The position numbers and the translations under genes are program-made. Positions 3,377-44,108 of a DNA stretch of 64,000 nucleotides are shown here, one piece after another. The notes under the pieces were generated by a model, which was given only the letters and a program-made list of their open reading frames with translations, had not been told where the DNA came from and made no database searches. Every line of letters begins with the position of its first letter. Position 1 is the first letter of the stretch. The stretch lies in NCBI GenBank assembly GCA_963811105.1, contig CAWEPZ010000008.1, forward strand, positions 1 to 64,000, read 5' to 3'. This DNA is from Candidatus Bathyarchaeota archaeon. Lineage in GTDB: Archaea > Thermoproteota > Bathyarchaeia > Bathyarchaeales > Bathycorpusculaceae.

Positions 3377-4669
3377 TTAGTCTCTCTGAAGTAAGAACTT
3401 ATCCTCGTTTAGCGTTTGAACGAGACTCCAGCCGTCATCAAGTTTCCGCATGAGATCGCTTTCGCCCTTGGCGATAATGTGTTTTCCTGCCTTTGGTGTC
3501 TGACTCTGAGCGGTGTTTGAGTTGTCCTTGAATTTGTGGAACTCTTCTATAGCTTCGCTGACATCCTTTGCTCTTGCGAGAGCATCTTCAAGCTTTCTTA
3601 ATTGTTCAGGTTCATAGCCCTGCAGTTTGGCGAAATCTAATAGCATTTGACTTCTAAGCTTCTTCTCCTCTGTTGGAACAGCATTAACCGTTAAATGTGG
3701 AATAGCCTTTCGATATTCGCCCAATTGCAAATGTTCTTCAGCCTTAAAATAACTCATATCCAAGTAAAGCCCTTGATGACCCATCCATCGTTCGCGGTAA
3801 GAAGCATCAACGCCTATGCAGTTTGAACGGAAATATTTTCTTAAGGTATGAATGTGTAGGATATGGAAGTAGTTGGTTTTCTGGGCTAATCCAGTTTTCT
3901 CAAGCAATCTGGTCCAAGCTTTACGGTAGCCGTTTCCCCCAAGGAATGTACCTTTATAGGCAAAGTCGGTTATTAACGGGCTCTCGGGGGTTATGGTCTC
4001 ACGTGCATTTTTTCTCTCGGCAAGGTATTCTTGCAAAGCTGTTTTTGCTTCAGGTGTTATGAAAGTGCAGAAAAAGCGTCCGGCTGCTCTGCCCTTATTT
4101 GAGAATTTACGGCCAAGTCTTCTTTCAACGGTTAGCCTTGCTACGTCTGGGTAGTTAAAATCAACATCTCCGACTCTCAAGCTTAGAAACGTGCCAATTC
4201 TCAAACCGCTACTGGTACACCCAAAGATTACAAACCGATCTCTGGCACTTGATGCATGAGCAAGAAGTTTTTTCAACTCATCTTTTGTCGGGGCTCTGTC
4301 TTCCTCGGTTATCTGGGTTGCTGTTGGGAGTTCAATTTTTTTCCAGTCAACTTTTACACCGTTAAGATCCAGCCACTTTTTGACTCCATAAACGTAAAGT
4401 CTAACTGACTTGTGGCTTCTTCCCAACTCATCTAAAGCGTAGTCAATGAAGGAATCAACTTTAGCGCCTGCATCGACTTTGCCCTCAAGCATTGCTGTAA
4501 GCGCTGTTTCTGGGTCTTGAAAGCCTGAGTATTTTATGAATGGTATTATTCCGTTAATGTAATTAGAAACTGTCTTGTCACTACCCATCCTTCTTGAGCC
4601 AGTTATGGAATCATAAATTTTCTTAACGCTTGGGTATTTTTCTATGTACTCAACAGCGAATCTTCGCAT
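3377..4669 (-). mobile_element. Tyrosine recombinase/integrase (intact)
   Basis: 430 aa with catalytic motifs SGLRIG (R), HTLRKYF (HxxR), WMGH and YLDMSY (Y). Confidence 0.92.
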
Positions 4670-33408: not shown

Positions 33409-34341
33409 TTAGAATTTGTGAATCCATGGAAGAAGTTGCTGTGCATTCTCTGGTTTTTCTGTAAGAGGCAATTGCAAGTAAGCGCCGTGCCTATTGAAGT
33501 ATGGTGCGCCTTTCCTTGAAAACAGAGTTAAAACTCTGCCGTGATGGTTAATTTTGAAGCCCTCCTCGCTTGATTCATGACCCCGGATAAGGATTTTAGC
33601 GTTCAAATTCCCAAGAACCTCCTCGGTTACTTTTCTTCCAAAAAGCTTTCCGGCACCCCTCGGCGAAGCTGAGACGCCCTGCAAACGCTCCTTTGGGTCG
33701 CTCCAAAGCAAATCTTCAAGCAAAGCTTCGTTTTGTTTTTCTTGAGCTTGGGCAATATCTTGGAGATTATTGATTTCTGGCGACACGCCACCGTGAACCA
33801 TCAAGTAGCGATCCTTAACGAACAAGGCGTTATAGAAATAAGCCCACAAAGATTGGATCTTCTCGTAGGCTATCTCCCAGTCTTCGCCAAACCTGTTTTG
33901 GAATTGAAAAGGCAAATCATGTGGTTCACCTATCAGATTTTTTGGGGCTTCATGGTTCCCCCGCAACAGAATTACTTGTTTTGGAAAAACAAGCTTAAGC
34001 TTCAAAACTGCATAGTAGACTTCAGCAGATTTTATGCCTCGGTCTCCATAGTCGCCTAAGAATATCAGTGTGGCATCCTCATTTTTCTCCATTACCTCTA
34101 AAAAATGGCTTTCTTGAAGGATAATTACTAAACTTTCTAAATCTCCATGTAAATCGCCAACGACTAATGCTTCGCCTAACGGTTCAAGTGTAACTAAACG
34201 ATTCACAATTGTTAGATTGCCCACTTGCCCAGTTTCGTCCCGCAACAGGGATGTGACTGTTTCAACTGATTTGATGAATACATCGCTTGGAGCCCCTAAT
34301 GCTTCTCCAATAAGTGAAGACAAATCCAAAGGACGCGCCAC
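33409..34341 (-). CDS. PPP-family Ser/Thr protein phosphatase
   Basis: GDLHG, GDYGDRG, LRGNHE, HGG, DLLWSDP, SPRGAG, IRGHE, LTLFS. Confidence 0.93.
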   Translation of the reverse strand: MARPLDLSSLIGEALGAPSDVFIKSVETVTSLLRDETGQVGNLTIVNRLVTLEPLGEALVVGDLHGDLESLVIILQESHFLEVMEKNEDATLIFLGDYGDRGIKSAEVYYAVLKLKLVFPKQVILLRGNHEAPKNLIGEPHDLPFQFQNRFGEDWEIAYEKIQSLWAYFYNALFVKDRYLMVHGGVSPEINNLQDIAQAQEKQNEALLEDLLWSDPKERLQGVSASPRGAGKLFGRKVTEEVLGNLNAKILIRGHESSEEGFKINHHGRVLTLFSRKGAPYFNRHGAYLQLPLTEKPENAQQLLPWIHKF

Positions 34342-35594
34342 TACGATATTTGAACTTTAATGTTAATTGAATTAAGTATGTTTCTTTCAATGGATCGCTT
34401 TAGACTAGTGATTTTGTCAACTGCGTCATCATAGGAGTTTTCCTTAACAGTTTCATGCGTTTCGATACTTGTTTTCCTGGCTTTAAGCAAGTCAACCTGT
34501 TCTTGAAAAGTGTTGAGACTTTGCTTTATCTCGTCCATTTTCGCAGAAGCAATCAGCAATTCCTTTGTGTTTGCCATTTCCTTGCTTCTGATTTGGAGCT
34601 TCGCAAGCGAGTTTTGTTTTAGAATTTCCTTTATTGACTGCTCAGCTTTGCGTGCTTTATCCTGTTTTAGTTTCAATTTGTCTTCTGCAATTAAACCTTC
34701 AAGCTTCTGCAAAATCTCTTTTAGCAATGGGTAATCGTCTAGTTCGCTTGTTAGCGCTTCGAAAGGTGTCTCTAAATAATGGTTGACTTTGCTGAGCTCA
34801 TCTGGAGTTACTCCTGCTCCGCCTCCCGATATAGCTAATGCTTGCATTTTAATGAAGGGTTTTTGCAGATGCCTAAGCGAATATTTCAATTCGTTGCTTA
34901 ATGTGTCTATTTCAGCATTAACCATGTTTAGCTTATCAATTGGTCCTTTGTTTTTTAATTCATAAATTCTTAATTCCAATTCAGCGATATCTCTCTCTAC
35001 AGGCAAGCGCTCATTCTTTATTTGTTCTTTTTCCTGACCGATGACCTCAAGTTGCTTTTGCACATTTTGTAGCTCGTTCAGTTGCTGTAAAGCTTCTTCC
35101 AAAGTTTTAGTTTTGACGTACTCTTTAGTTAAGAATTCGTTTAACGATTGATTTGCTACCTTAGCCCTTTCATATATTGCTAAGAACTTTCTTCTGTCCA
35201 TGATGAAGAAGGGTGAAATTCGAGGAAACCAATTCTTGATGTCGATATCCATGACTAACATTACCTTTTGAATTTCTTGAACATACCTGCTTAGTGTGTC
35301 ATAACTGATTTCATCAGGCGTCGCAATCTTTTTGAGACGGTCAAGAAACAAATGTGAAAGCTTGTTGAGGGCTCTGGCCCGATTATAAACTTTCATATTT
35401 CTTTTTTCGATTTCTCGTGTGCTGTTATCTAAAAGGATCTTGCTGATGTCGCCAACGCCTTGAAGCGCCATGTTCATGTCATCTCTTAGTTTTTTGGCTT
35501 GGGCGTGTACAGGCGAGAGGATGGAGCTTGTTTGGTTTTCAAGCCAGCGTTTAACCTCGCTTGTATTGGAGAACTGAATTGCTTCCGTCAACAT
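34341..35594 (-). CDS. Long coiled-coil hypothetical protein
   Basis: 417 aa, heptad-rich in E/K/L/Q; its stop overlaps the phosphatase start. Confidence 0.75.
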   Translation of the reverse strand: MLTEAIQFSNTSEVKRWLENQTSSILSPVHAQAKKLRDDMNMALQGVGDISKILLDNSTREIEKRNMKVYNRARALNKLSHLFLDRLKKIATPDEISYDTLSRYVQEIQKVMLVMDIDIKNWFPRISPFFIMDRRKFLAIYERAKVANQSLNEFLTKEYVKTKTLEEALQQLNELQNVQKQLEVIGQEKEQIKNERLPVERDIAELELRIYELKNKGPIDKLNMVNAEIDTLSNELKYSLRHLQKPFIKMQALAISGGGAGVTPDELSKVNHYLETPFEALTSELDDYPLLKEILQKLEGLIAEDKLKLKQDKARKAEQSIKEILKQNSLAKLQIRSKEMANTKELLIASAKMDEIKQSLNTFQEQVDLLKARKTSIETHETVKENSYDDAVDKITSLKRSIERNILNSINIKVQIS

Positions 35595-35707: not shown

Positions 35708-36328
35708 ATGAAACAACCGAGAAGGGAACTATTATTGAACGCAAAAAAATTGGCATTTATAGTGATGATGGGAGCACTTGGTAATGTCCTATTTGCAGTC
35801 AGTTACTTTGCAGGACCAATAGCTCCTGGAATAGCTCTGGATTTCTCATTAATGGCTGTATTCATAGCCGGTTTTTTCGTGGGACCCACCGAAGGCATAG
35901 TCACAGGAGTTATCGCAGGAATATTGCCTGGGATAATGTTTGGGCCAGCAGGAACAGGCGGATGGTTAGGACTCATTGGCTTACCGCTCGGAAAAGCCCT
36001 AACAGGCTTAACAGCTGGGTTAGTCGGAAAAAGCATAAACTTGCAAAAACCGCGCTTTTCCCTTCTCGGAATTCCGCTGACTTTAGCGGCATATATTCCA
36101 GAAGCAATATTCACTTATGCCTACTTTGCGTTTTTACTTCCGCTATTCATACCTACCCAGCTACTTGGAAACGCAGTCATAATCACTATCTTGATAAAAG
36201 CGGTCGGTGAAGTGCTCATAATGGGCTTCGTAATAGCGGCATTGCTCGGAAACAAAGGCTTCAATAGTTTCATCCATTCATTTTTCGGTAAGCCACAAAA
36301 AACACTAACAAATGTGACTGCCCCATAA
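35708..36328 (+). CDS. ECF transporter S-component
   Basis: AxxxAL-type N-helix, LDFS..AV.IAGFF.GP..G motif, six TMs. Confidence 0.75.
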   Translation: MKQPRRELLLNAKKLAFIVMMGALGNVLFAVSYFAGPIAPGIALDFSLMAVFIAGFFVGPTEGIVTGVIAGILPGIMFGPAGTGGWLGLIGLPLGKALTGLTAGLVGKSINLQKPRFSLLGIPLTLAAYIPEAIFTYAYFAFLLPLFIPTQLLGNAVIITILIKAVGEVLIMGFVIAALLGNKGFNSFIHSFFGKPQKTLTNVTAP

Positions 36329-36353
36329 AACGTTTTTTTTAACGAAAAGAAAT

Positions 36354-37313
36354 TTAGAATCCTAAGGATTGCGCTAGCACCTTAGGGTTGATTTGTCCTG
36401 CTTTGAAGGTTCTTCCAGTTTTAGCATTGTTAATTATTAGTATTGCTGGGGCGAATAAGCCGTGGTCTATTTTGTAGAAGTCTTTGTCTGCTTCTCGGAA
36501 AATCTGCAGGAATGGTTTACCGTAATCTTTTGAAGCCATTGATGGCGCCTGCTGCATAATATTTTGCAGAGCTGCTTCATCATCATGGTCAACTGTGCAG
36601 TACACTGTTCCTCCGTAGAGGATGGCGTCGTTTGTTCGTGCCATTGCAACTTCAAAATCTGTCCCCAGCGGCGGGATAGGTGCATATCCAAACGCGTGAC
36701 GGATAACCTTGGGGCTTAAGCCAAGAGTACGAAGCTTATGAATACCTACTTCAACTACTCTTCCAGCAACCTGAGTTAATCCAGCAATACTTGCGGTTGG
36801 AGCAACAACGATAATTAGGTTTTCTGTTTTGATATTGCTTGCAATTGTCACTTTTTCAATTAGCACATCTGAGGGCAAAGTGTTGCTTTCCAAAGTAAGC
36901 ACCGCTTTGTCGCTTTGATCTCTGTAGCCAATTTCCTCAAAAATGTCTTTAGGCTTCAGGGCCAAGGCGCGAACTGGGCCTGACCCGATAGCTATTTGGT
37001 CACCGTCTTTTATGCGCCAGCCAGCAAACTGAGAGCCTAACGCTGCAATCGCCGGGTGATCTGTGCTGACAGTGATTGATGGGAAGGTTAAGTCGCCGTA
37101 GGATTTGAATCCAAGTTGAGCTTTTCCAACGCCTCCCATGCAGAGTTCGGTTAGTTTTTTGCCTGCTTGAAAGCCTCCGGGAGCCTTGACTCCCGCGTCG
37201 ATTACGGTGGCTCCAGCAGTTGATTTTGAGACTGTTACACCGTAAAATTCTGGGTTATCGATAAGTTTTTGGGCTATTTTCCAAGCCATTTGGTTTACGC
37301 TTAACGTAGCCAT
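36354..37313 (-). CDS. mch: Methenyltetrahydromethanopterin cyclohydrolase
   Basis: VIDAGV, ELCMGG, LGSQFAGW, GSGPVRALA, QVAGRVVE, MARTNDAILYGG, SKDYGKPF, DFYKID..LFAPA. Confidence 0.95.
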   Translation of the reverse strand: MATLSVNQMAWKIAQKLIDNPEFYGVTVSKSTAGATVIDAGVKAPGGFQAGKKLTELCMGGVGKAQLGFKSYGDLTFPSITVSTDHPAIAALGSQFAGWRIKDGDQIAIGSGPVRALALKPKDIFEEIGYRDQSDKAVLTLESNTLPSDVLIEKVTIASNIKTENLIIVVAPTASIAGLTQVAGRVVEVGIHKLRTLGLSPKVIRHAFGYAPIPPLGTDFEVAMARTNDAILYGGTVYCTVDHDDEAALQNIMQQAPSMASKDYGKPFLQIFREADKDFYKIDHGLFAPAILIINNAKTGRTFKAGQINPKVLAQSLGF

Positions 37314-37385
37314 GACTTTTCACTTCATCTAGCGTATTGTTGATTTGTTTTTTCATATTAACTTAACGCTGAAAATGCTCAAGTG

Positions 37386-38333
37386 CTACGGTCTGTATCC
37401 GTTAAGAGTGCAAAGCGCCAAAGCTGCTGCCGTCAAATCCGCGGTAGTCCCAGGATTACACTTGTTTTGGGATAAACGCAGTTTCTTATCGAGCTCTTTG
37501 AGAGTTTTTGTACCTTCTTCGGTTTCTAAACCACCAAGCTCTAAAACAGCCTTTGCCTCCTGTGACACTTCTTGCGCTTTTTTGATGCCGACTTTTCTTG
37601 CTATGAAGGTGTCAGGGCGATTTGACAGAATTTTTAGGAAAGAGTGAACGACGGCAGTGTTAAAAGGCTTAGTTTTTAGCTGTTCAGTAAGGTATGGGTA
37701 GGCTAAATCGAAGGTTATGGGATAATTGTTTATCCATTCATAGCAGATGTCATCGTAGTTTTCGCCGATTTTGAAAACCTCAAACAAAGTGACGTTATCT
37801 CGCATCAAGAGTTCTTTGGAAGCGGGGTCGGTTACATCAAGTTCAATCGATTTGTTAAGACCACTCGGACTAGCTATATCTACTGCCTCATAGAGGTGTA
37901 CGGAATCCCAAGCGGTTGTTGCTCTAATGACAAGATCAATATTTTTGCGCAATTGAGAGAAGTCGAAGCTTTCATTTTTTTTGGTTAGTGTCATTCCTGC
38001 GGCGACAGCAATTGGCATAAACAGCATTATGGTGCCGAGAATCGTGTTTCCACCCCTCTGCCAATCGTTAACGTCGCTCGCGCAGGTTTTGACAAGTTGA
38101 CCCAGACCTACTTCACCGATACCAAGCTTGTTTTTGGCCACTAAAGCTCCTCGAATTGCCGCTTCTTGGATAGTTGTCCCTGCAGCAATGGCTGAAGCCA
38201 AAAAATGTTGGCACGTTGTCTTCTCAAAACTCGATGTTAGATTGACGTTACCGGGCTTTTCTGCACTGACCTCTAAGAGTATAGCCAATTGGAGGCATTT
38301 TGAGATGTGTTGTGCTTTTTCTTGGTTACTCAT
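37386..38333 (-). CDS. citG: Archaeal CitG-like triphosphoribosyl transferase
   Basis: LLEVSAEKPGNV, GNTILGTIML, PDTFIARK.G, NPGTTADLTAA. Start placed at MSNQEK (38333). Confidence 0.88.
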   Translation of the reverse strand: MSNQEKAQHISKCLQLAILLEVSAEKPGNVNLTSSFEKTTCQHFLASAIAAGTTIQEAAIRGALVAKNKLGIGEVGLGQLVKTCASDVNDWQRGGNTILGTIMLFMPIAVAAGMTLTKKNESFDFSQLRKNIDLVIRATTAWDSVHLYEAVDIASPSGLNKSIELDVTDPASKELLMRDNVTLFEVFKIGENYDDICYEWINNYPITFDLAYPYLTEQLKTKPFNTAVVHSFLKILSNRPDTFIARKVGIKKAQEVSQEAKAVLELGGLETEEGTKTLKELDKKLRLSQNKCNPGTTADLTAAALALCTLNGYRP

Positions 38334-38429
38334 AGTTCTACGTGTAAAGTGGTTTAAAGAAGGTTTATTAAACTTTGCAAAAAAGTACAAGCATTCGAAA
38401 AACACATAGATTAGACTTGAGGGATAAGT

Positions 38430-39449
38430 TTGAAGGCTCGTGAAGGCGACTTAATCAAAACAAAGAGTAATGTGGTTTTTGACGTTAAAGGTTTAGTTCA
38501 CCCCGCAGACAAAATTATTGCTTTTCCCCGCTTTATTCCTTCACCGATGGGTACCAGAAGGGGTGATAACGGTGCCTATGGCAAAGTCTACAACCTCGGT
38601 GACAGGTTCAAGTATCTGCAAGAAAACCAGCCTGATCTCATCGTTTTTGACCCTGTCTTCGGCGAAACAATGTGCGAAGTCCCAGTTACAGATATAGCTG
38701 AGCAGTATAAACCTGAAGAAAAACTTTGGTCGCTGCGTTCATCCAAAGATCTTACGGTTTTGGAGAACAAGGCTTTGCAGCTGGCTGAACTCCTGAAGGT
38801 AGAGGCCGCCATTCCCTGGAGCAGCATTGGGATTTCTGGGTCGATCATGGCGGGTTTAACTACTGATAAATCAGACATTGATCCATTAATTTATGGGGTG
38901 GAGAACTGTCGAAAAGCCTACGCTGCACTGCAGGAGTTGCTGGGGAAGTCGGATTCTGGGTTCAAACCTTACAGCCGAGAAGAACTTGTGGAACTTTTCG
39001 ATTTTCGTTCGAAAGACACACAAATGAGCTTAGAAGACTTCGTTTTAGTCGAAAGTCGCAAGGCGTTTCAAGGCAAATTCATGGGAACTGACTATTTTAT
39101 TCGTTTCGTGAAGGAATGGAACGAAATAAACGAACATTATGGGGATGTGTGGTTCAAGAACAGTGGCTATGCAAAAGTAACCGCCAAAATAGCCGATGCC
39201 ACCGACTCGCTTTTCACTCCGTGCACCTACAAGCTTCAAGATGTCCGAGTTGTTGAAGGACCCAAATTGGCCCCAATAACTGAAATTGTTTCTTTCCGCG
39301 GCAGGTTCTGTGAGCAAGCAGCAAACGGCGAAGCGGTTGAGGCTCAGGGAAAAGTTGAATTAGTAACCAACAGGAAAATGGGCTGCGAATATTTCCGTTT
39401 GATATTGGGCAATAAGCCGTCGGATTATTTGGTTCTTTCACATGGTTAA
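38430..39449 (+). CDS. Predicted nucleotidyltransferase (COG1665-like), paralog 1
   Basis: REGD...FDVKGLVHP; GISGS..AGL....SDIDPLIYG; C-terminal OB-like SFRGRFCEQA..GE.VEAQGKVE. Confidence 0.8.
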   Translation: MKAREGDLIKTKSNVVFDVKGLVHPADKIIAFPRFIPSPMGTRRGDNGAYGKVYNLGDRFKYLQENQPDLIVFDPVFGETMCEVPVTDIAEQYKPEEKLWSLRSSKDLTVLENKALQLAELLKVEAAIPWSSIGISGSIMAGLTTDKSDIDPLIYGVENCRKAYAALQELLGKSDSGFKPYSREELVELFDFRSKDTQMSLEDFVLVESRKAFQGKFMGTDYFIRFVKEWNEINEHYGDVWFKNSGYAKVTAKIADATDSLFTPCTYKLQDVRVVEGPKLAPITEIVSFRGRFCEQAANGEAVEAQGKVELVTNRKMGCEYFRLILGNKPSDYLVLSHG

Positions 39450-40519
39450 TGCTGCACTTTGAGGACTTGTTCGTAGTAGCGTGGACAGTAGGTTAAGGTA
39501 ATCTGGTAGCATGTTTCTCTTGGTGTTGTGACTTCTTCAAGGTTGCCTTCAACAATTATGACTTCGTCTTTTTGGGCTTGCTGGCGGAACTCTTCCATGA
39601 AAGAGATAACCCGCCGTGCCTGAAGTCCAACTGGGTCACCGCTTAAAACTTCCAAGGCTTTGATGCCGTAAATTGATGGAATAAAGGGTGCTTCACCGTC
39701 CGACGTGACTTTGGCTTTTAGTTTTATCCAGCCTTTAGATGTAATTTTCGTTTTTGGGTCGTATTCAGATTTAATTTCGCCCCAAGCCTTCACCGGTTCA
39801 AACTCAGCTTTGATAGTTCTGCCGCTGGCTTTATCATCATATAACCCGTAGATTTGTTTTCTTCGCTGATGCCAAACAAAGTCTTCAGTAGTGAAGTTTT
39901 TAAACCGCCAATCCTTACCCGCCATGGCTTTATCTGATTCAAACTCGTTAGTCAAACACGAACGCTTATCAGCATACAAGGCTTCAAGCGCTTTTCGCAT
40001 TTTGCAATTTTCATTTTTGCCATAAACCACAAGATCGATATCTGAGAATTTTGGGTGATGAAAACCATGCAACATGGAGCCGAAAACTCCGAAGTTTGAA
40101 GTTTTTAACCCTGATTTTTTGGTTACTTTATCAAGCACTTTTTGCATTGCTAAGATGAGTTCATCTTTTGATTCAGTTCTAATTATTTCTTGCAATCTTT
40201 CTTCTGGTTTTCTTGTTTGCGCGATTTCAGCTTCATTTATGCCAATAACTTTTCGGCGCAGCATGTCGTGATAAACGGTGTATTTTTGGAAAGAGTTGGC
40301 AATTAGTTTCCATCCTTCATCGTTATAGAATTTGTAGAAGATTTTGTTTCTGCCTGTTCTTTGCGCTCGAGCGTCATTTGAGGTGAAAATGTTTGAAGAG
40401 GCATATTCAGCATCACAAATGTATGCTTGTGGCGGGTGAGAGTATCCAAAGACGCGGAAAATCAAGCCTTCACTCGTCTCTATACCGTCTCGGTCACGCA
40501 GTTTTATGCTATTGGCCAT
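39446..40519 (-). CDS. Predicted nucleotidyltransferase (COG1665-like), paralog 2
   Basis: RDRD...FRVFGYSHP; GVFGS.LHG....SDIDLVVYG; SFMEEFRQQA..DE.IIVEGNLE. Confidence 0.8.
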   Translation of the reverse strand: MANSIKLRDRDGIETSEGLIFRVFGYSHPPQAYICDAEYASSNIFTSNDARAQRTGRNKIFYKFYNDEGWKLIANSFQKYTVYHDMLRRKVIGINEAEIAQTRKPEERLQEIIRTESKDELILAMQKVLDKVTKKSGLKTSNFGVFGSMLHGFHHPKFSDIDLVVYGKNENCKMRKALEALYADKRSCLTNEFESDKAMAGKDWRFKNFTTEDFVWHQRRKQIYGLYDDKASGRTIKAEFEPVKAWGEIKSEYDPKTKITSKGWIKLKAKVTSDGEAPFIPSIYGIKALEVLSGDPVGLQARRVISFMEEFRQQAQKDEVIIVEGNLEEVTTPRETCYQITLTYCPRYYEQVLKVQH

Positions 40520-41541
40520 ATGTATTCTTCCTCTGATGTTGCTGTTCCAACAACCACTTGATAATAAACTTCATCTGAAGTTGTTGATTCCACTCGTTCC
40601 AGTTTGCCCGCGACTTTAATCTCGCTTCCTTTGCGGGCTATGTTTCTGTAGCAGCCTATATTTGAAACAACCTGAACTGGAATTTTGTCTAAATCAAGCT
40701 CTGACTGCTCATCTTGCGGTTTGTAGCCTGAAATCTTGTATATAGCTGGACGATACATAGTTTCAGTATCATCGCAAACAGTTGCTTGGAATCGCACCGG
40801 GTCAAGCGGAATATAGCGGTAGGCTCCATATTTCTCCTTGACTTGTTCAGTTTTTTTGGTAGCGTTATACATGAAGATTTTGCCCAGGTATTTTCCCTGG
40901 AATTTTCTTGCAGCTTCCAACCGGTTGCCGATAATGTAACTTAATTTTGCAGTAGTTAACAAGCCTGGCTATAGCCTCTTCCACTAAACGGAAGTTTTCT
41001 GTGCCGTAAATAACGAAATCTATGTCTGATTCTGGTGCATGCATGTTCAAGGCGATGGAACCGTGGACTCCAAAATCTCTTAAATAGTATGTCCTGATTC
41101 CTTTGATATTAAATGAATTAGGCTCAGAGCCATTTGTTGGAGTTTGTCTTTTTTTGGCAGGTTTTGCAGCCAGACCAAGCGGTCTTTGGGAACAAAAACC
41201 TGCTGGATTAATTCGAGGGGTGCAGTGATTAATTCTTTGTTTCGGTAGGGGCAGAAGTAAAGGTAATCGGGAAAGTTTTTGCGGAAAGCTTCAATAAAAG
41301 TCTGGTAGTTTTTTGCAGTGTAGAGTTTTTCTGCTCTGAAAAGCTGGTTATCGCCAAACGTCCAGGTTCTCTCCAACATTTCAACGTCAAAAAGCTCCTT
41401 GTATTTGGCTGGGATATATTTGAGGAATGCGAAAACGCGGTCGTCTGGATGCTCGTACCCAAAAGTGTTGAGTATAAAGCCATCTTTGGTTACGAAGGTG
41501 TCTCCATCCATTGGAACCCAGATATCTTCAGTTATATTCAT
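40504..41541 (-). CDS. Predicted nucleotidyltransferase (COG1665-like), paralog 3 (frameshifts near 41085 and 40955)
   Basis: Three frames join: DGD...NTFGYEHP / [23 protein letters not shown] / [23 protein letters not shown]. Confidence 0.75.
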
Positions 41542-41610: not shown

Positions 41611-42955
41611 TTAATAATATTTTTTTGCCATTTTCTTTGCTTCAATAGCTTCTGGTGAATTGTCGTCCAATGTGTCTGGGGTCTTTTGCTGTTCTTCTAG
41701 ATTTTCTTTGGAGGTGTTTATTTTGTTTTTCGCGTTCTCTTTCTTTGTTTTCTTAAGTGCATTGGCAATATATTTGTTTAATTCAATATTTTTTATTATT
41801 TTATCGGATAGGGTTTCGGGTGCGTAAGCTAACGGCAGAATTGCTATAAACAAGAAGATAGCTGCAAAGGAAAAAACCGATTTTTCGCCTCCCATGACTG
41901 CAGCTATGTCTGTGCCAACAATAATACGCGTAATGTTTGAGAGAAGGTATGGCAATATGCCTAGGACATAATATTTTTCGCTGCTTTTTTCCTGTGCTAT
42001 GTCTCCCCAAATTGTAAATATGAATAGCATGGAAAATACGCCCCAGGCAATACCATCCACGCATACGTAAAACCAAGCGGTAAGGTAGCCGCCGAAAGTC
42101 AAGCTTGCATAGCCTAATCCTAATAGGGCAAATGCTATCAAAGCTAAGCGTTTTCGACCACTCTTGTCAGCTAGAACTCCACAAACTATAGCAGATACTC
42201 CTGCCAAAATATTTTCGATAAGTATAAAATTTTGACCAAAAAATACAGGGAATTGGTTACTACCAAAGTAATTAGAGTTCATTTTTTGTGTTAAGTCGTT
42301 GATAAGAGAGAACATGAACCATGGCACAATGTACAGCAGAAAAGTCTTATTTGAAATAATTGAACGGTAAGATACGCGGTCTTTTGGGGCCAATTCTTTT
42401 TCAGGAAGCTTCAAACGTGTGAGTAAAATTAATCCTATAATCAGCCAAATTGATAAAGTGCTGGCTGTAATTAGAGTTTGAGCGGTTCCTACTGATGGAC
42501 AGAATGAAGAAGCCTAAGGCCATTAAAAGAATTATTATACCGCTAAACTTAGCGCGATTTTGTGGCTCGGTGTTTGCGGTATAGTATCCTATGCACACGG
42601 GCATTCCAAGCCCGAAATAGACACCTAAAACACTTGCAAGTATCAAGAGTATTGTGAAGCCTGCCAAATTGATAAATGCAAATAATAATGAAAGCAAAAC
42701 ACCTGCAAGCACCCAATACTTAAGGAAAACTAGGCGTTGCTTGAATCTGCCAAATGATGTTGAGATTACTGCTGATAAAACCAAAGCGAAGAAATTAACG
42801 GCAACTACGGACAGTAGATCTTCTGGACGGGCGGCATCTTTTAGAAAAGTATATGTGGTAAGATACCACACAAAGACGTTCGCTACTAAAAAAGTACTGA
42901 CTAACGTGTTCTTTGATGTTGATTGAAGCTTCTTAATGATCCCGTGGTTTAGCAT
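41611..42955 (-). CDS. MFS transporter (single frameshift near 42493)
   Basis: Joined about 447 aa, about 12 TMs, motif A GVLADKSGRKR, and TEPQNRAKFSG. Confidence 0.8.
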
Positions 42956-43087: not shown

Positions 43088-44108
43088 TCACATTTCAGCA
43101 CTTAAAGCCTCAAGCAAAATCGTCAACTCTTTCGCTCTCTTACTGTCTTTGAGCAGCAAATTGCTTGCCAATTCATTTTCACCAAGTTTCCGTAATTCAG
43201 CTTTTAGTTTTTGAACTTCAATGGAGTTTAATGTAGTTTTAGCGATGAATTTTAGATTTTTAGATGAAATCCTGTTTTCTTTGACAAATGGGAGAAATTG
43301 TTCTTTTATTTTCGGGTTTTGTAGTGCATAAAGCATGGGGTATGGGGGTAGTTCATTTTTGATTCTGTGTGCAAGTTCAGAGGGGGTCACAAGGTCAACA
43401 AATTCTTCCTTCAACGTTGACAATATCCCAATTAATCGACCATAATTAGTCAAATCCTCAATCATCTTCTCGTCTGCACCAGCAAAAACCCCGCCAATTC
43501 TGCAGTGAAGCCCAGCTATAACCCCTTTTAGCCTAATTACCTTAAAATATTCCTCGGGTGTTACATCTGCTTTCTTCCATAATTCTACTTCCACAGATTC
43601 TGCCTTGATTATTTCAGTCATTGATTTTAGAACAAAAGCTGTGACTACCTTTTTCTGATCATTTGTTAAGGATTCGCAGTTTTGTAGTGCTACAGTGCCT
43701 TCGAAGTAGTAAGGTGTCGCCTGCGAGAAGAGCAACATCTCTACCATATTTACCGAAAATGGTTTTTGTTTCGAATTTCTCAATCGAATTGTCAATGATG
43801 TCATCGTGGATGTCTCCTGCTGCGGTCATCAGCATCATGGCAGTGGCCAAAGGTTTTGTTTTTTCAGGGTTTCCTCCTCCGGCTTTGCAGGAGAGATACA
43901 AAAGGGCTGGGAAAATCGGCAATACATTTGGCAAAATTTCTGTAGCATAATAATTTAGTGCATTGGAGATTGTTCCCTTGGCTTCTTGACCCTCACGAAT
44001 CTTTTTGGAAGCTGCATCTAACACAGATTTGCCTCTGTGGTTAATAATTTCCAGAGCTTTTTCTGTTAGCGAGTAGGGTTTCATATCTTTACCGTGTCGG
44101 GTTTGCAT
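43088..44108 (-). CDS. ComQ-like class I isoprenoid-synthase-fold prenyltransferase (single frameshift near 43706)
   Basis: FARM AAGDIHDDIID, ALLAGD, EYFKVIRLKG and degenerate SARM LKEEFVD; the RRG loop after FARM is absent. Confidence 0.8.

Follow-up and report, generated by a model that had tools for sequence, protein, structure and literature searches.

No enzyme has, to our knowledge, ever been assigned to the attachment of the alpha-ribosyl-phosphate or of the hydroxyglutarate in methanopterin. Classical methanogens make the hydroxyglutarate form of this cofactor. In the window analysed here (the whole stretch of 64,000 nucleotides from contig CAWEPZ010000008.1 of a Candidatus Bathyarchaeota archaeon), an mch gene lies beside a CitG-family gene and a group of nucleotidyltransferase (NTase) genes (Table 1), and the question is whether such a group could carry out these late steps, as an earlier note on this DNA had proposed. 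A full-text search found no literature that connects CitG or a nucleotidyltransferase with the synthesis of methanopterin, as far as titles and the openings of abstracts can tell, and we found no mention in our literature search of COG1665, the label that had been given to the NTases.

Table 1. Genes of the locus, with their positions in the window and the matches that identify them
Feature	Position	Strand	Observations
ECF-type S component, probable	35708..36328	+	membrane protein (206 aa) whose gene is convergent with mch; PF12822 23.7 bits (cut-off 30.7; E 5.6e-5)
mch, methenyl-tetrahydromethanopterin cyclohydrolase	36354..37313	-	PF02289 393.7 bits; TIGR03120 379.8 bits (cut-off 228.8)
CitG-family gene, archaeal subfamily	37386..38405	-	PF01874 222.4 bits (gathering score 27)
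NT1, clade A nucleotidyltransferase, 339 aa	38430..39449	+	divergent from CitG gene; family profile 400.6 bits
NT2, clade B nucleotidyltransferase, 357 aa	39446..40519	-	PF01909 28.4 bits (cut-off 21); family profile 354.6 bits
NT3, nucleotidyltransferase of clade D, disrupted in this assembly	40504..41541	-	frame analysis, orthologs

The gene arrangement at this locus is more than chance, because the order NT3-NT2-NT1-CitG is found again in seven related Bathyarchaeia assemblies (L057 to L063), with Mch beyond CitG in six of them and none found in L061; the adjacency is thus conserved in other genomes. In the window, mch shares its strand with the CitG-family gene, which lies 73 bp upstream of it, the NT1 and CitG ORFs as called are 25 bp apart, the stops of NT1 and NT2 overlap by 4 bases, and the end of NT3 overlaps the start of NT2 by 16 bases. 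From the extent of the match and the ORF text, the true start of the CitG gene is probably the ATG at 38333 (MSNQEK...). The mch call of the earlier note was borne out at the equivalog level. Its citG call holds as family membership, given that PF01874 covers residues 36-331 of the protein and profile positions 2-283 of 284, but the protein scores far below the bacterial CitG/MdcB equivalog cut-offs (TIGR03125, 47.1 vs 272.3; TIGR03132, 43.2 vs 282.35) and likewise below that of NF002315 (55.6 vs 280), and these equivalog models align to its C-terminal third only. This is the single CitG-family gene in the whole genome.

NT1 and NT2 are intact paralogs (27% identical, E 2e-25) and carry a G-x-x-G-S ... 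S-D-I-D motif, which reads GISGS...SDID in NT1. There is no Pfam match to NT1 at E<=0.01, no match of CitX or MdcG to NT1, NT2 or either NT3 piece (Pfam and NCBIfam, E<=0.01), and no named Pfam or NCBIfam family for these NTases beyond the weak PF01909 match; the family scores in Table 1 come from a profile built from alignment A1. The description of three adjacent nucleotidyltransferases, each with an intact motif, is right for NT1 and NT2 but does not hold for the NT3 of this assembly. There, the N-terminal part of the gene (41541-41080) is terminated by TAA, the motif piece (GVHGS...SDID, about 41090-40955) lies in another frame, and the C-terminal part (40962-40504) is back in the first frame. 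Compared with its orthologs in L057 and L059, the window NT3 has two extra bases near 41085-41095 and one near 40954, while the orthologs are open in L057 to L061 (344-467 aa) and 71-78% identical to it, the middle part being read in the other frame. Public short-read contigs from two runs (X1 and X3) have one base fewer at each of 40954/40955, 41085 and 41094/41095, and in them NT3 is intact.

The NTase family, which has no family name, consists of proteins of about 340-360 aa with three domains: an N-terminal beta-rich domain with an invariant His, a Pol-beta palm (90 sequences show no variation at G144, G147, S148, D160 and D162), and an OB fold at the C-terminus with an invariant Glu. A structure model of NT2 reached a pLDDT of 96.5. 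Its palm is nearest to TUT7, TdT and Pol beta (Z 6.6-7.3; for TUT7, Z 7.3 and rmsd 3.4 over 92 residues; MenT1, Z 6.4) and its OB domain resembles SSB and the MCM N-terminal domain (Z 7.0-7.1), matches that are only middling, a Z of about 7 being the usual best score for models without a true match. The fold searches barely covered model residues 1-115. A sequence search of solved structures with the NTase gave nothing meaningful, Foldseek with the NTase model gave no match at E<=1e-3, and a modelled complex of CitG and NT1 scored 0.00, an uncontrolled value that speaks neither for nor against their contact. The OB fold and the palm like that of RNA uridylyltransferases would fit a nucleic-acid substrate, middling as these matches are, which is a point against the reading that we prefer below. 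This family shares with other Pol-beta-type NTases (PF01909; terminal uridylyltransferases, MenT, Pol X) both the palm and the G-S ... D-x-D motif, and differs from them in its fixed three-domain build.

In a tree of the family, four well-supported clades were found, each with both Thermoproteota and Asgard members (for instance, clade A with 39 rows and an SH-aLRT of 95, and clade B with 9 rows and an SH-aLRT of 100). The three paralogs of the window fall in three of these four old clades, common to Thermoproteota and Asgard archaea; therefore, they are not lineage-specific, and the idea of a lineage-specific elaboration is not supported. The clade A copy is the CitG-adjacent NTase in many genomes. 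One phosphodiester does not account for four old paralog clades, a second point against the preferred reading.

How far these genes travel together was tallied in samples of 301 Thermoproteota and 101 Asgard genomes. In the Thermoproteota sample, 149 genomes have the NTase and 141 have CitG; by a hand tally, both occur in 138 of the 152 genomes with either, the NTase only in 11, CitG only in 3 and neither in 149. Among the Asgard archaea, the corresponding numbers are 67 and 79, with both in 62 of the 84 genomes with either. RFAP synthase (E<=1e-10) was found in 110 Thermoproteota genomes and Mch in 78, and the NTase is present in 145 of the 152 genomes with one or the other; only 4 of the 149 NTase-bearing genomes have neither marker. 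Mch is absent from 76 of the 149, which speaks against the link. The association also appears within families: in one (f25), the identical 12 of 18 genomes carry NTase, CitG and RFAP synthase, and in another (f29), a single genome of 10 (G280) carries these three together with Mch. The NTase distribution thus correlates with methanopterin markers, in agreement with the earlier proposal. Related genomes are not independent, and these tallies therefore overstate the association. Moreover, the NTase is not an obligate partner of CitG, as shown by the genomes in which CitG was found but the NTase was not (3 in Thermoproteota, 17 in Asgard and 2 in Hadesarchaea).

Gene neighbourhoods point in the same direction. 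Among the best 80 CitG loci (alignment A4), which came from Bathyarchaeia, Asgard and Hadesarchaea among others, 49 have an NTase within 9 kb of CitG, and in the Thermoproteota sample, with its 141 CitG genomes, at least 40 of these have one within 2.5 kb. A point against is that of 20 CitG neighbourhoods picked across families, only 5 have an NTase within 9 kb. In some Asgard and Thermoproteota, NTase, MptA, MptH-like and flavoprotein/4Fe-4S genes stand in a single gene row. For instance, one locus has the order NT-x-NT-CitG-DUF447-MptA(GCHY-1)-MptE (L038), and two others have flavoprotein/4Fe-4S, MptH-like (PF14251 with Pterin_bind), MptA, NT and NT, with CitG 3-6 kb off (L139 and L143), while a fourth reads FTR-NT-NT-ECF-S...Mer-like, Mtd, Mch, RimK-type ligase, CitG (L144). 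Distribution and neighbours agree, and they support the earlier view that CitG and the NTases form a conserved module tied to methanopterin-type metabolism.

The ECF-type gene suggests where in this metabolism the module may act. The call of an ECF S component is a weak one: the window protein scores under the PF12822 cut-off, and the gene at the same position in L057 (11637-12221) gives 23.2 bits with this model. Such genes recur in the module elsewhere. A phmmer search with the window protein found a homolog in 1 of the 80 loci, and a profile of five Pfam-supported ECF-S-like proteins found matches in 23; of the module-linked relatives that were re-tested, 11 of 18 and 4 of 6 are over a Pfam cut-off (PF12822 or PF07155), and the best model for these genes is PF07155, the riboflavin-type S component. 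Two genes for EcfT (PF02361; 136.4 and 117.3 bits) are present elsewhere in the genome, on contig C2. In 12 Bathyarchaeia whose ECF-S-like gene is placed next to NT1 and CitG, either between the two or at their side, RFAP synthase and PF14251 are each found in none and Mch in 9, vs 14 (RFAP synthase), 13 (PF14251) and 13 (Mch) of 16 genomes in which NT1 is directly beside CitG. This contrast had been predicted before the searches, and five sample genomes repeat the ECF-type pattern. The absence of RFAP synthase and of the MptH-type domain, with Mch still in 9 of 12 genomes, suggests salvage plus late steps. Thus, gene content supports the module as a late or finishing one, kept in genomes without RFAP synthase and the MptH-type domain, and the presence of an ECF-S gene between NT1 and CitG where the early pathway is missing speaks for the suggestion that the ECF component may import a precursor.

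The chemistry that such a module might perform can be drawn from known systems. CitG and MdcB transfer a ribosyl triphosphate from ATP, and CitX and MdcG act in the attack on its alpha-phosphate, with loss of pyrophosphate. The module resembles CitG+CitX and MdcB+MdcG in that a CitG-family gene is paired with a nucleotidyltransferase-type gene (in the window, NT1 adjoins it) and in the two-step logic proposed here; unlike in those systems, the NTases have two extra domains, and the proposed acceptor is a small-molecule cofactor and not a protein. A CitG-family gene amid methanopterin-linked genes also has a parallel in orf7, which reportedly encodes a homolog of CitG and lies in C1 gene islands linked to H4MPT in methylotrophs such as Methylobacterium; we know of no description of an NTase partner in those islands. 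In coenzyme F420 synthesis, CofC and CofD use an activated phosphate donor to join a hydroxy acid to a ribityl-type chain via a phosphodiester, an analogy in chemistry only, since their folds and genes are unrelated to those of the module.

Because of the CitG/MdcB and CitX/MdcG chemistry, we infer two steps. The CitG-like enzyme would use ATP to place an alpha-ribosyl-5-triphosphate on a hydroxyl of a pterin-arylamine-ribitol intermediate, releasing adenine, and the Pol-beta-type NTase would treat this ribosyl triphosphate like an NTP, with pyrophosphate leaving as the alpha-phosphate becomes linked to an alcohol, for instance 2-hydroxyglutarate. The old paralogs might use different acceptors or form a hetero-oligomer, and the ECF-S protein may import a precursor. 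We lean slightly towards this reading, in which the ECF-S gene, mch with the CitG-like gene, NT1, and NT2 with NT3 would together serve the finishing of a methanopterin-type side chain or its rebuilding after uptake. A fuller version, in which all these elements are joined, is tentative and rather doubtful as a whole: the CitG/CitX logic would have shifted from a protein to a small molecule, with ATP as the source of the alpha-ribose and of the activated phosphate alike, and a three-domain NTase doing the capping; the four clades would correspond to different head groups or to a hetero-oligomer; and many Bathyarchaeia without synthesis of the pterin-arylamine core would import it via an ECF S component dedicated to this task, whose gene lies between those of the two enzymes, and then finish it.

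Other explanations share part of this evidence. The module could serve a methanopterin-type or other cofactor by a different chemistry, in which the NTases activate an intermediate or an acceptor, or in which the target is another ribityl or phosphodiester compound, for example a flavin or a deazaflavin derivative. The best fit of the ECF-S genes to the riboflavin-type model agrees with this, as do F420_ligase-like genes (PF01996) adjacent or close to CitG or to the pair of NTases in three loci (L048, L055 and L144) and the four old clades, which suggest more than one reaction. Against this explanation, the joint distribution tracks RFAP synthase or Mch, the tightest contexts are MptA, MptH-like and MptE genes, and Mch is still present where the module is retained but the early pathway is missing; overall, we regard it as fairly unlikely.

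We give much less weight to the idea that CitG makes triphosphoribosyl-dephospho-CoA and that the NTase fixes this prosthetic group to a serine of an archaeal carrier protein. This is the sole proven chemistry that we know of for a CitG enzyme acting with a partner of the NTase type, and the arrangement of CitG next to an NTase is identical, but CitX (PF03802) and the citrate-lyase acyl carrier protein CitD (PF06857) were not found in the genome (G000, 96.65% complete), CitG is far under the equivalog scores, a conserved small carrier gene was not seen in the annotated neighbourhoods, and the link to RFAP synthase would be left unexplained. As the earlier note had stated, there is no citrate-lyase gene in the window (Pfam, 51 ORFs), and in 14 control genomes CitX and CitD occur in E. 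coli only, while CitG occurs in E. coli and in four archaea, the very ones with RFAP synthase. About equally improbable, in our view, is a role of the NTases at the ends of RNA or DNA, in tailing, repair or tRNA modification, with other reasons for their place near C1 genes. The fold resemblances described above and the basic N-terminal domain (mean net charge +4.9) would fit such a role, but the OB domain is acidic on average (net charge -1.9, positive in 22% of 90 sequences), the fold scores are those usual without a true match, the NTases share a gene row and strand with MptA and MptH-like genes, and they co-occur with CitG and RFAP synthase.

On the preferred reading, that of side-chain finishing, the module supplies candidate genes for the late methanopterin steps and a concrete two-step assay, and it could serve as a genomic marker distinguishing cofactor salvagers from makers. 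It would thus bear on cross-feeding in sediments and on work that reconstructs the metabolism of Bathyarchaeia and Asgard archaea on the basis of the H4MPT Wood-Ljungdahl pathway. If the paralogs do differ in head group, this diversity would explain the variety of methanopterin-like cofactors.

Some minor observations concern the limits of the NTase family. No protein of 595-2000 aa matched NT1, which is weak evidence against fused forms. An Atlas look-up with a short CitG-adjacent form (L044) gave clusters with Methanobacteriota as the commonest phylum (score 0.98), a lead only, made without alignment. The few distant members of the family that carry names come from Bathyarchaeia, Methylarchaceae, Nitrososphaerales MAGs, an MSBL1 archaeon and one Chloroflexia MAG.

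The CitG-like protein and the nucleotidyltransferases (NTases) form a real, conserved module, which is new as a variant of the CitG-plus-transferase arrangement. Judging from sequence evidence, it is a strong candidate to supply the late steps that are still lacking in the synthesis of methanopterin-type cofactors. To our knowledge, no enzymes have been assigned to these late steps, and orf7, a CitG homolog, is linked to H4MPT-type C1 genes in methylotrophs. By analogy, the chemistry of CitG/MdcB and CitX/MdcG would be carried over to a small-molecule acceptor. Neither CitX nor CitD was found in the genome of the window, whose assembly (3.49 Mb, 15 contigs) has a completeness of 96.65% and belongs to Bathyarchaeia, as judged from how its nearest protein relatives are named.

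Genes of the window were defined from a list of open reading frames together with Pfam and NCBIfam family scans. mch and the CitG gene share a strand with a spacing of 73 bp, NT1 is divergent relative to the CitG gene, and the end of NT3 overlaps the start of NT2 by 16 bases. The CitG-family protein scores far under the NCBIfam equivalog levels of bacterial CitG and MdcB, and NT1 and NT2 share 27% identity (E 2e-25). Housekeeping genes flank the cluster, including those for PheRS alpha and beta, a class I (Trp/Tyr-type) tRNA synthetase, and an ABC transporter; at 3377-4669, some 30 kb from the cluster, there is a gene of the phage-integrase family (PF00589, 31.5 bits). After mch, positions 33409-35594 encode a 417-aa coiled-coil-like protein that matches no Pfam family, together with a calcineurin-like phosphoesterase (PF00149, 85.8 bits). 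This pair also follows mch in loci L059, L060, and L063 of related genomes, while the 417-aa protein occurs there without the phosphoesterase in L057, L058, and L076.

Genes of the cluster, with their positions and family matches
Feature	Position	Strand	Match or remark
ECF-S-like membrane protein, 206 aa	35708-36328	+	PF12822 23.7 bits (cut-off 30.7), sub-threshold
Mch	36354-37313	-	PF02289 393.7 bits; TIGR03120 379.8 bits
CitG-family protein	37386-38405	-	PF01874 222.4 bits
NT1, 339 aa	38430-39449	+	paralog of NT2
NT2, 357 aa	39446-40519	-	PF01909 28.4 bits
NT3	41541-40504	-	broken frame (see text)

The evidence on distribution was drawn from Thermoproteota, Asgard archaea, and Hadesarchaea. 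Among 301 Thermoproteota genomes, the NTase is found in 149 and CitG in 141; by a hand tally, 138 have both, 11 the NTase only, 3 CitG only, and 149 neither. The corresponding numbers for 101 Asgard genomes are 67 with the NTase and 79 with CitG (62 both, 5 NTase only, 17 CitG only, 17 neither), and no NTase match was found in two CitG-bearing Hadesarchaea genomes. The adjacency of the two genes is also conserved in other genomes, since an NTase lies in the fetched flank of CitG in 49 of the best 80 named CitG loci, in most of them as a clade A copy on the opposite strand, directly beside CitG or one gene off. Another sample was less favourable, with an NTase within 9 kb in 5 of 20 CitG neighbourhoods drawn across families.

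The expected correlation with H4MPT markers was found as well. RFAP synthase (TIGR00144) is present in 110 and Mch in 78 of the 301 Thermoproteota genomes, and 145 of the 152 genomes having either marker carry the NTase, while only 4 of the 149 NTase genomes (G125, G007, G150, and G198) have neither. All four genes are missing from large families (f12, 0/43; f16, 0/17; f18, 0/25; f21, 0/20), and in family f25, the NTase, CitG, and RFAP synthase occur in the same 12 of 18 genomes. CitG matched E. coli and four archaea among the 14 control genomes, and these same four archaea have RFAP synthase. Gene neighbourhoods agree with this distribution. For instance, locus L038 has the order NT-x-NT-CitG-DUF447-MptA-MptE, CitG adjoins Mch in L051 and L052, and it lies near Mtd, with one intervening gene, in L048. 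In Asgard loci L139 and L143, the order is flavoprotein/4Fe-4S, MptH-like (PF14251), MptA, NT, NT, and in L144, an NT pair has FTR on one side and an ECF-S gene on the other, with Mer-like, Mtd, Mch, RimK-type ligase, and CitG genes in the same block.

A further look at the late-step role comes from Bathyarchaeia, in many of which the NT1-CitG gap of about 1 kb is occupied by an ECF-S-like gene. A profile built from five such proteins has matches in 23 of the best 80 named CitG loci; PF07155 or PF12822 matched 15 of 18 re-checked proteins at E<=0.01 (11 above a cut-off) and 4 of 6 further ones. We had set the expectation beforehand that ECF-type genomes would be without the early pathway. RFAP synthase is present in 0/12 ECF-type genomes versus 14/16 genomes in which NT1 directly adjoins CitG, and PF14251 in 0/12 versus 13/16, while Mch is found in 9/12 versus 13/16, a contrast that may reflect few evolutionary events, as the ECF-type genomes are mutually related. 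Five sample genomes, 94-100% complete, show the same pattern, some of them probably identical with some of the 12, so that the sets are not additive. ECF-type Bathyarchaeia retain a methanopterin-dependent enzyme, CitG, and NTases without the enzymes for arylamine synthesis and coupling, and the simplest reading is that they take up a precursor and then carry out the finishing steps. In the window, the ECF-S-like gene adjoins mch, as in its relative L057, and early methanopterin genes are present in the same genome.

Several other genes occur in these neighbourhoods. Between CitG and the NTase pair, two Asgard loci encode a protein whose kinase domain is of the TiaS TCKD type (PF22641, 56-62 bits; L139:6452-7576, also with an HTH domain, and L143:8737-9888), and in both it is adjoined by an unannotated protein of 339-415 aa. 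DUF447 (PF04289 with PF20766) directly adjoins CitG in two Thermoproteota families (L038:10355-10987 and L040:8341-9054). DUF1464 (PF07318) adjoins the CitG-NTase pair in a Thermoproteota genome (L044:10726-11817) and is the first gene of the flavoprotein, MptH-like, MptA, NT, NT row in Asgard L143 (85-684). F420_ligase-like genes (PF01996, 42-68 bits) were observed in three distant genomes, adjoining CitG in L048 (10087-10977) and L055 (10049-10897) and lying two genes from the NTase pair, past FTR, in L144 (1829-2728).

The Pfam and NCBIfam scans found no curated family for the NTases except the weak PF01909 match, and we found no solved structure related to them by sequence. When 1.84 billion representatives were scanned in full, 586 relatives were found at E<=1e-3, and H28, G144, G147, S148, D160, D162, and E328 are invariant in 90 aligned NTases. 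The AlphaFold model of NT2 (357 aa) is confident (pLDDT 96.5, pTM 0.92), and Foldseek gave no match to it at E<=1e-3. VIA-align comparisons, which bear on residues from 116 on and scarcely cover the first 115, gave middling scores that suggest a Pol-beta-type palm at residues 116-245 (TUT7, Z 7.3; TdT, 6.9) and an OB fold at 206-357 or 262-357 (MCM N-terminal domain and SSB, Z about 7); this putative OB domain is slightly acidic on average. A search among proteins of 595-2000 aa found no fused form. MAGs labelled Chloroflexota/Chloroflexia hold a CitG relative (L110, on a 2.2-kb contig) and an NTase-family protein (P0346), which may be due to mis-binning or be real bacterial members.

Two points of the earlier note did not hold. 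It had suggested that the three diverged paralogs may mean a lineage-specific or iteratively extended C1 carrier, but a lineage-specific origin of the paralogs is contradicted by a quick-mode IQ-TREE tree of 77 rows (input thinned at >62% identity from 150 to 79 rows, from which two long-branch rows were then removed). Its four clades, A (39 rows, support 95, including NT1), B (9 rows, support 100, including NT2), C (24 rows, support 95, with no copy in the window), and D (5 rows, support 100, including NT3 orthologs), all have both Thermoproteota and Asgard members, and thus the triplication is old rather than a local elaboration.

The note had also reported an intact motif in all three NTases, and in the window assembly this fails for NT3: its N-terminal part stops at a TAA, the GVHGS...SDID piece lies in a second frame, and the first frame resumes in the C-terminal part. 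This could reflect a true pseudogene or an assembly error. In five related assemblies (L057-L061), the ortholog is one uninterrupted reading frame that matches the window at 71-78% identity over its full length, with residues ~160-230 in the other frame, and DNA alignment to L057 and L059 places two extra bases in the window near 41085-41095 and one near 40954. Contigs from public short reads (runs X1 and X3) lack one base each at 40954/40955, 41085, and 41094/41095; they also have 4-11 further letter differences per 109-250 bases and therefore come from relatives, not from the same strain. Beyond NT3, the gene of an MFS transporter at 41611-42955 and that of a polyprenyl-synthase-like protein at 43088-44108 are both split, each being read as a pair of overlapping ORFs, which may point to frameshift errors of the assembly, and fragmentation of a similar kind is seen in the related assemblies L062 and L063. 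Given the open orthologs, the contigs without the extra bases, and the split or fragmented genes, the balance tips somewhat toward an assembly error rather than a true pseudogene.
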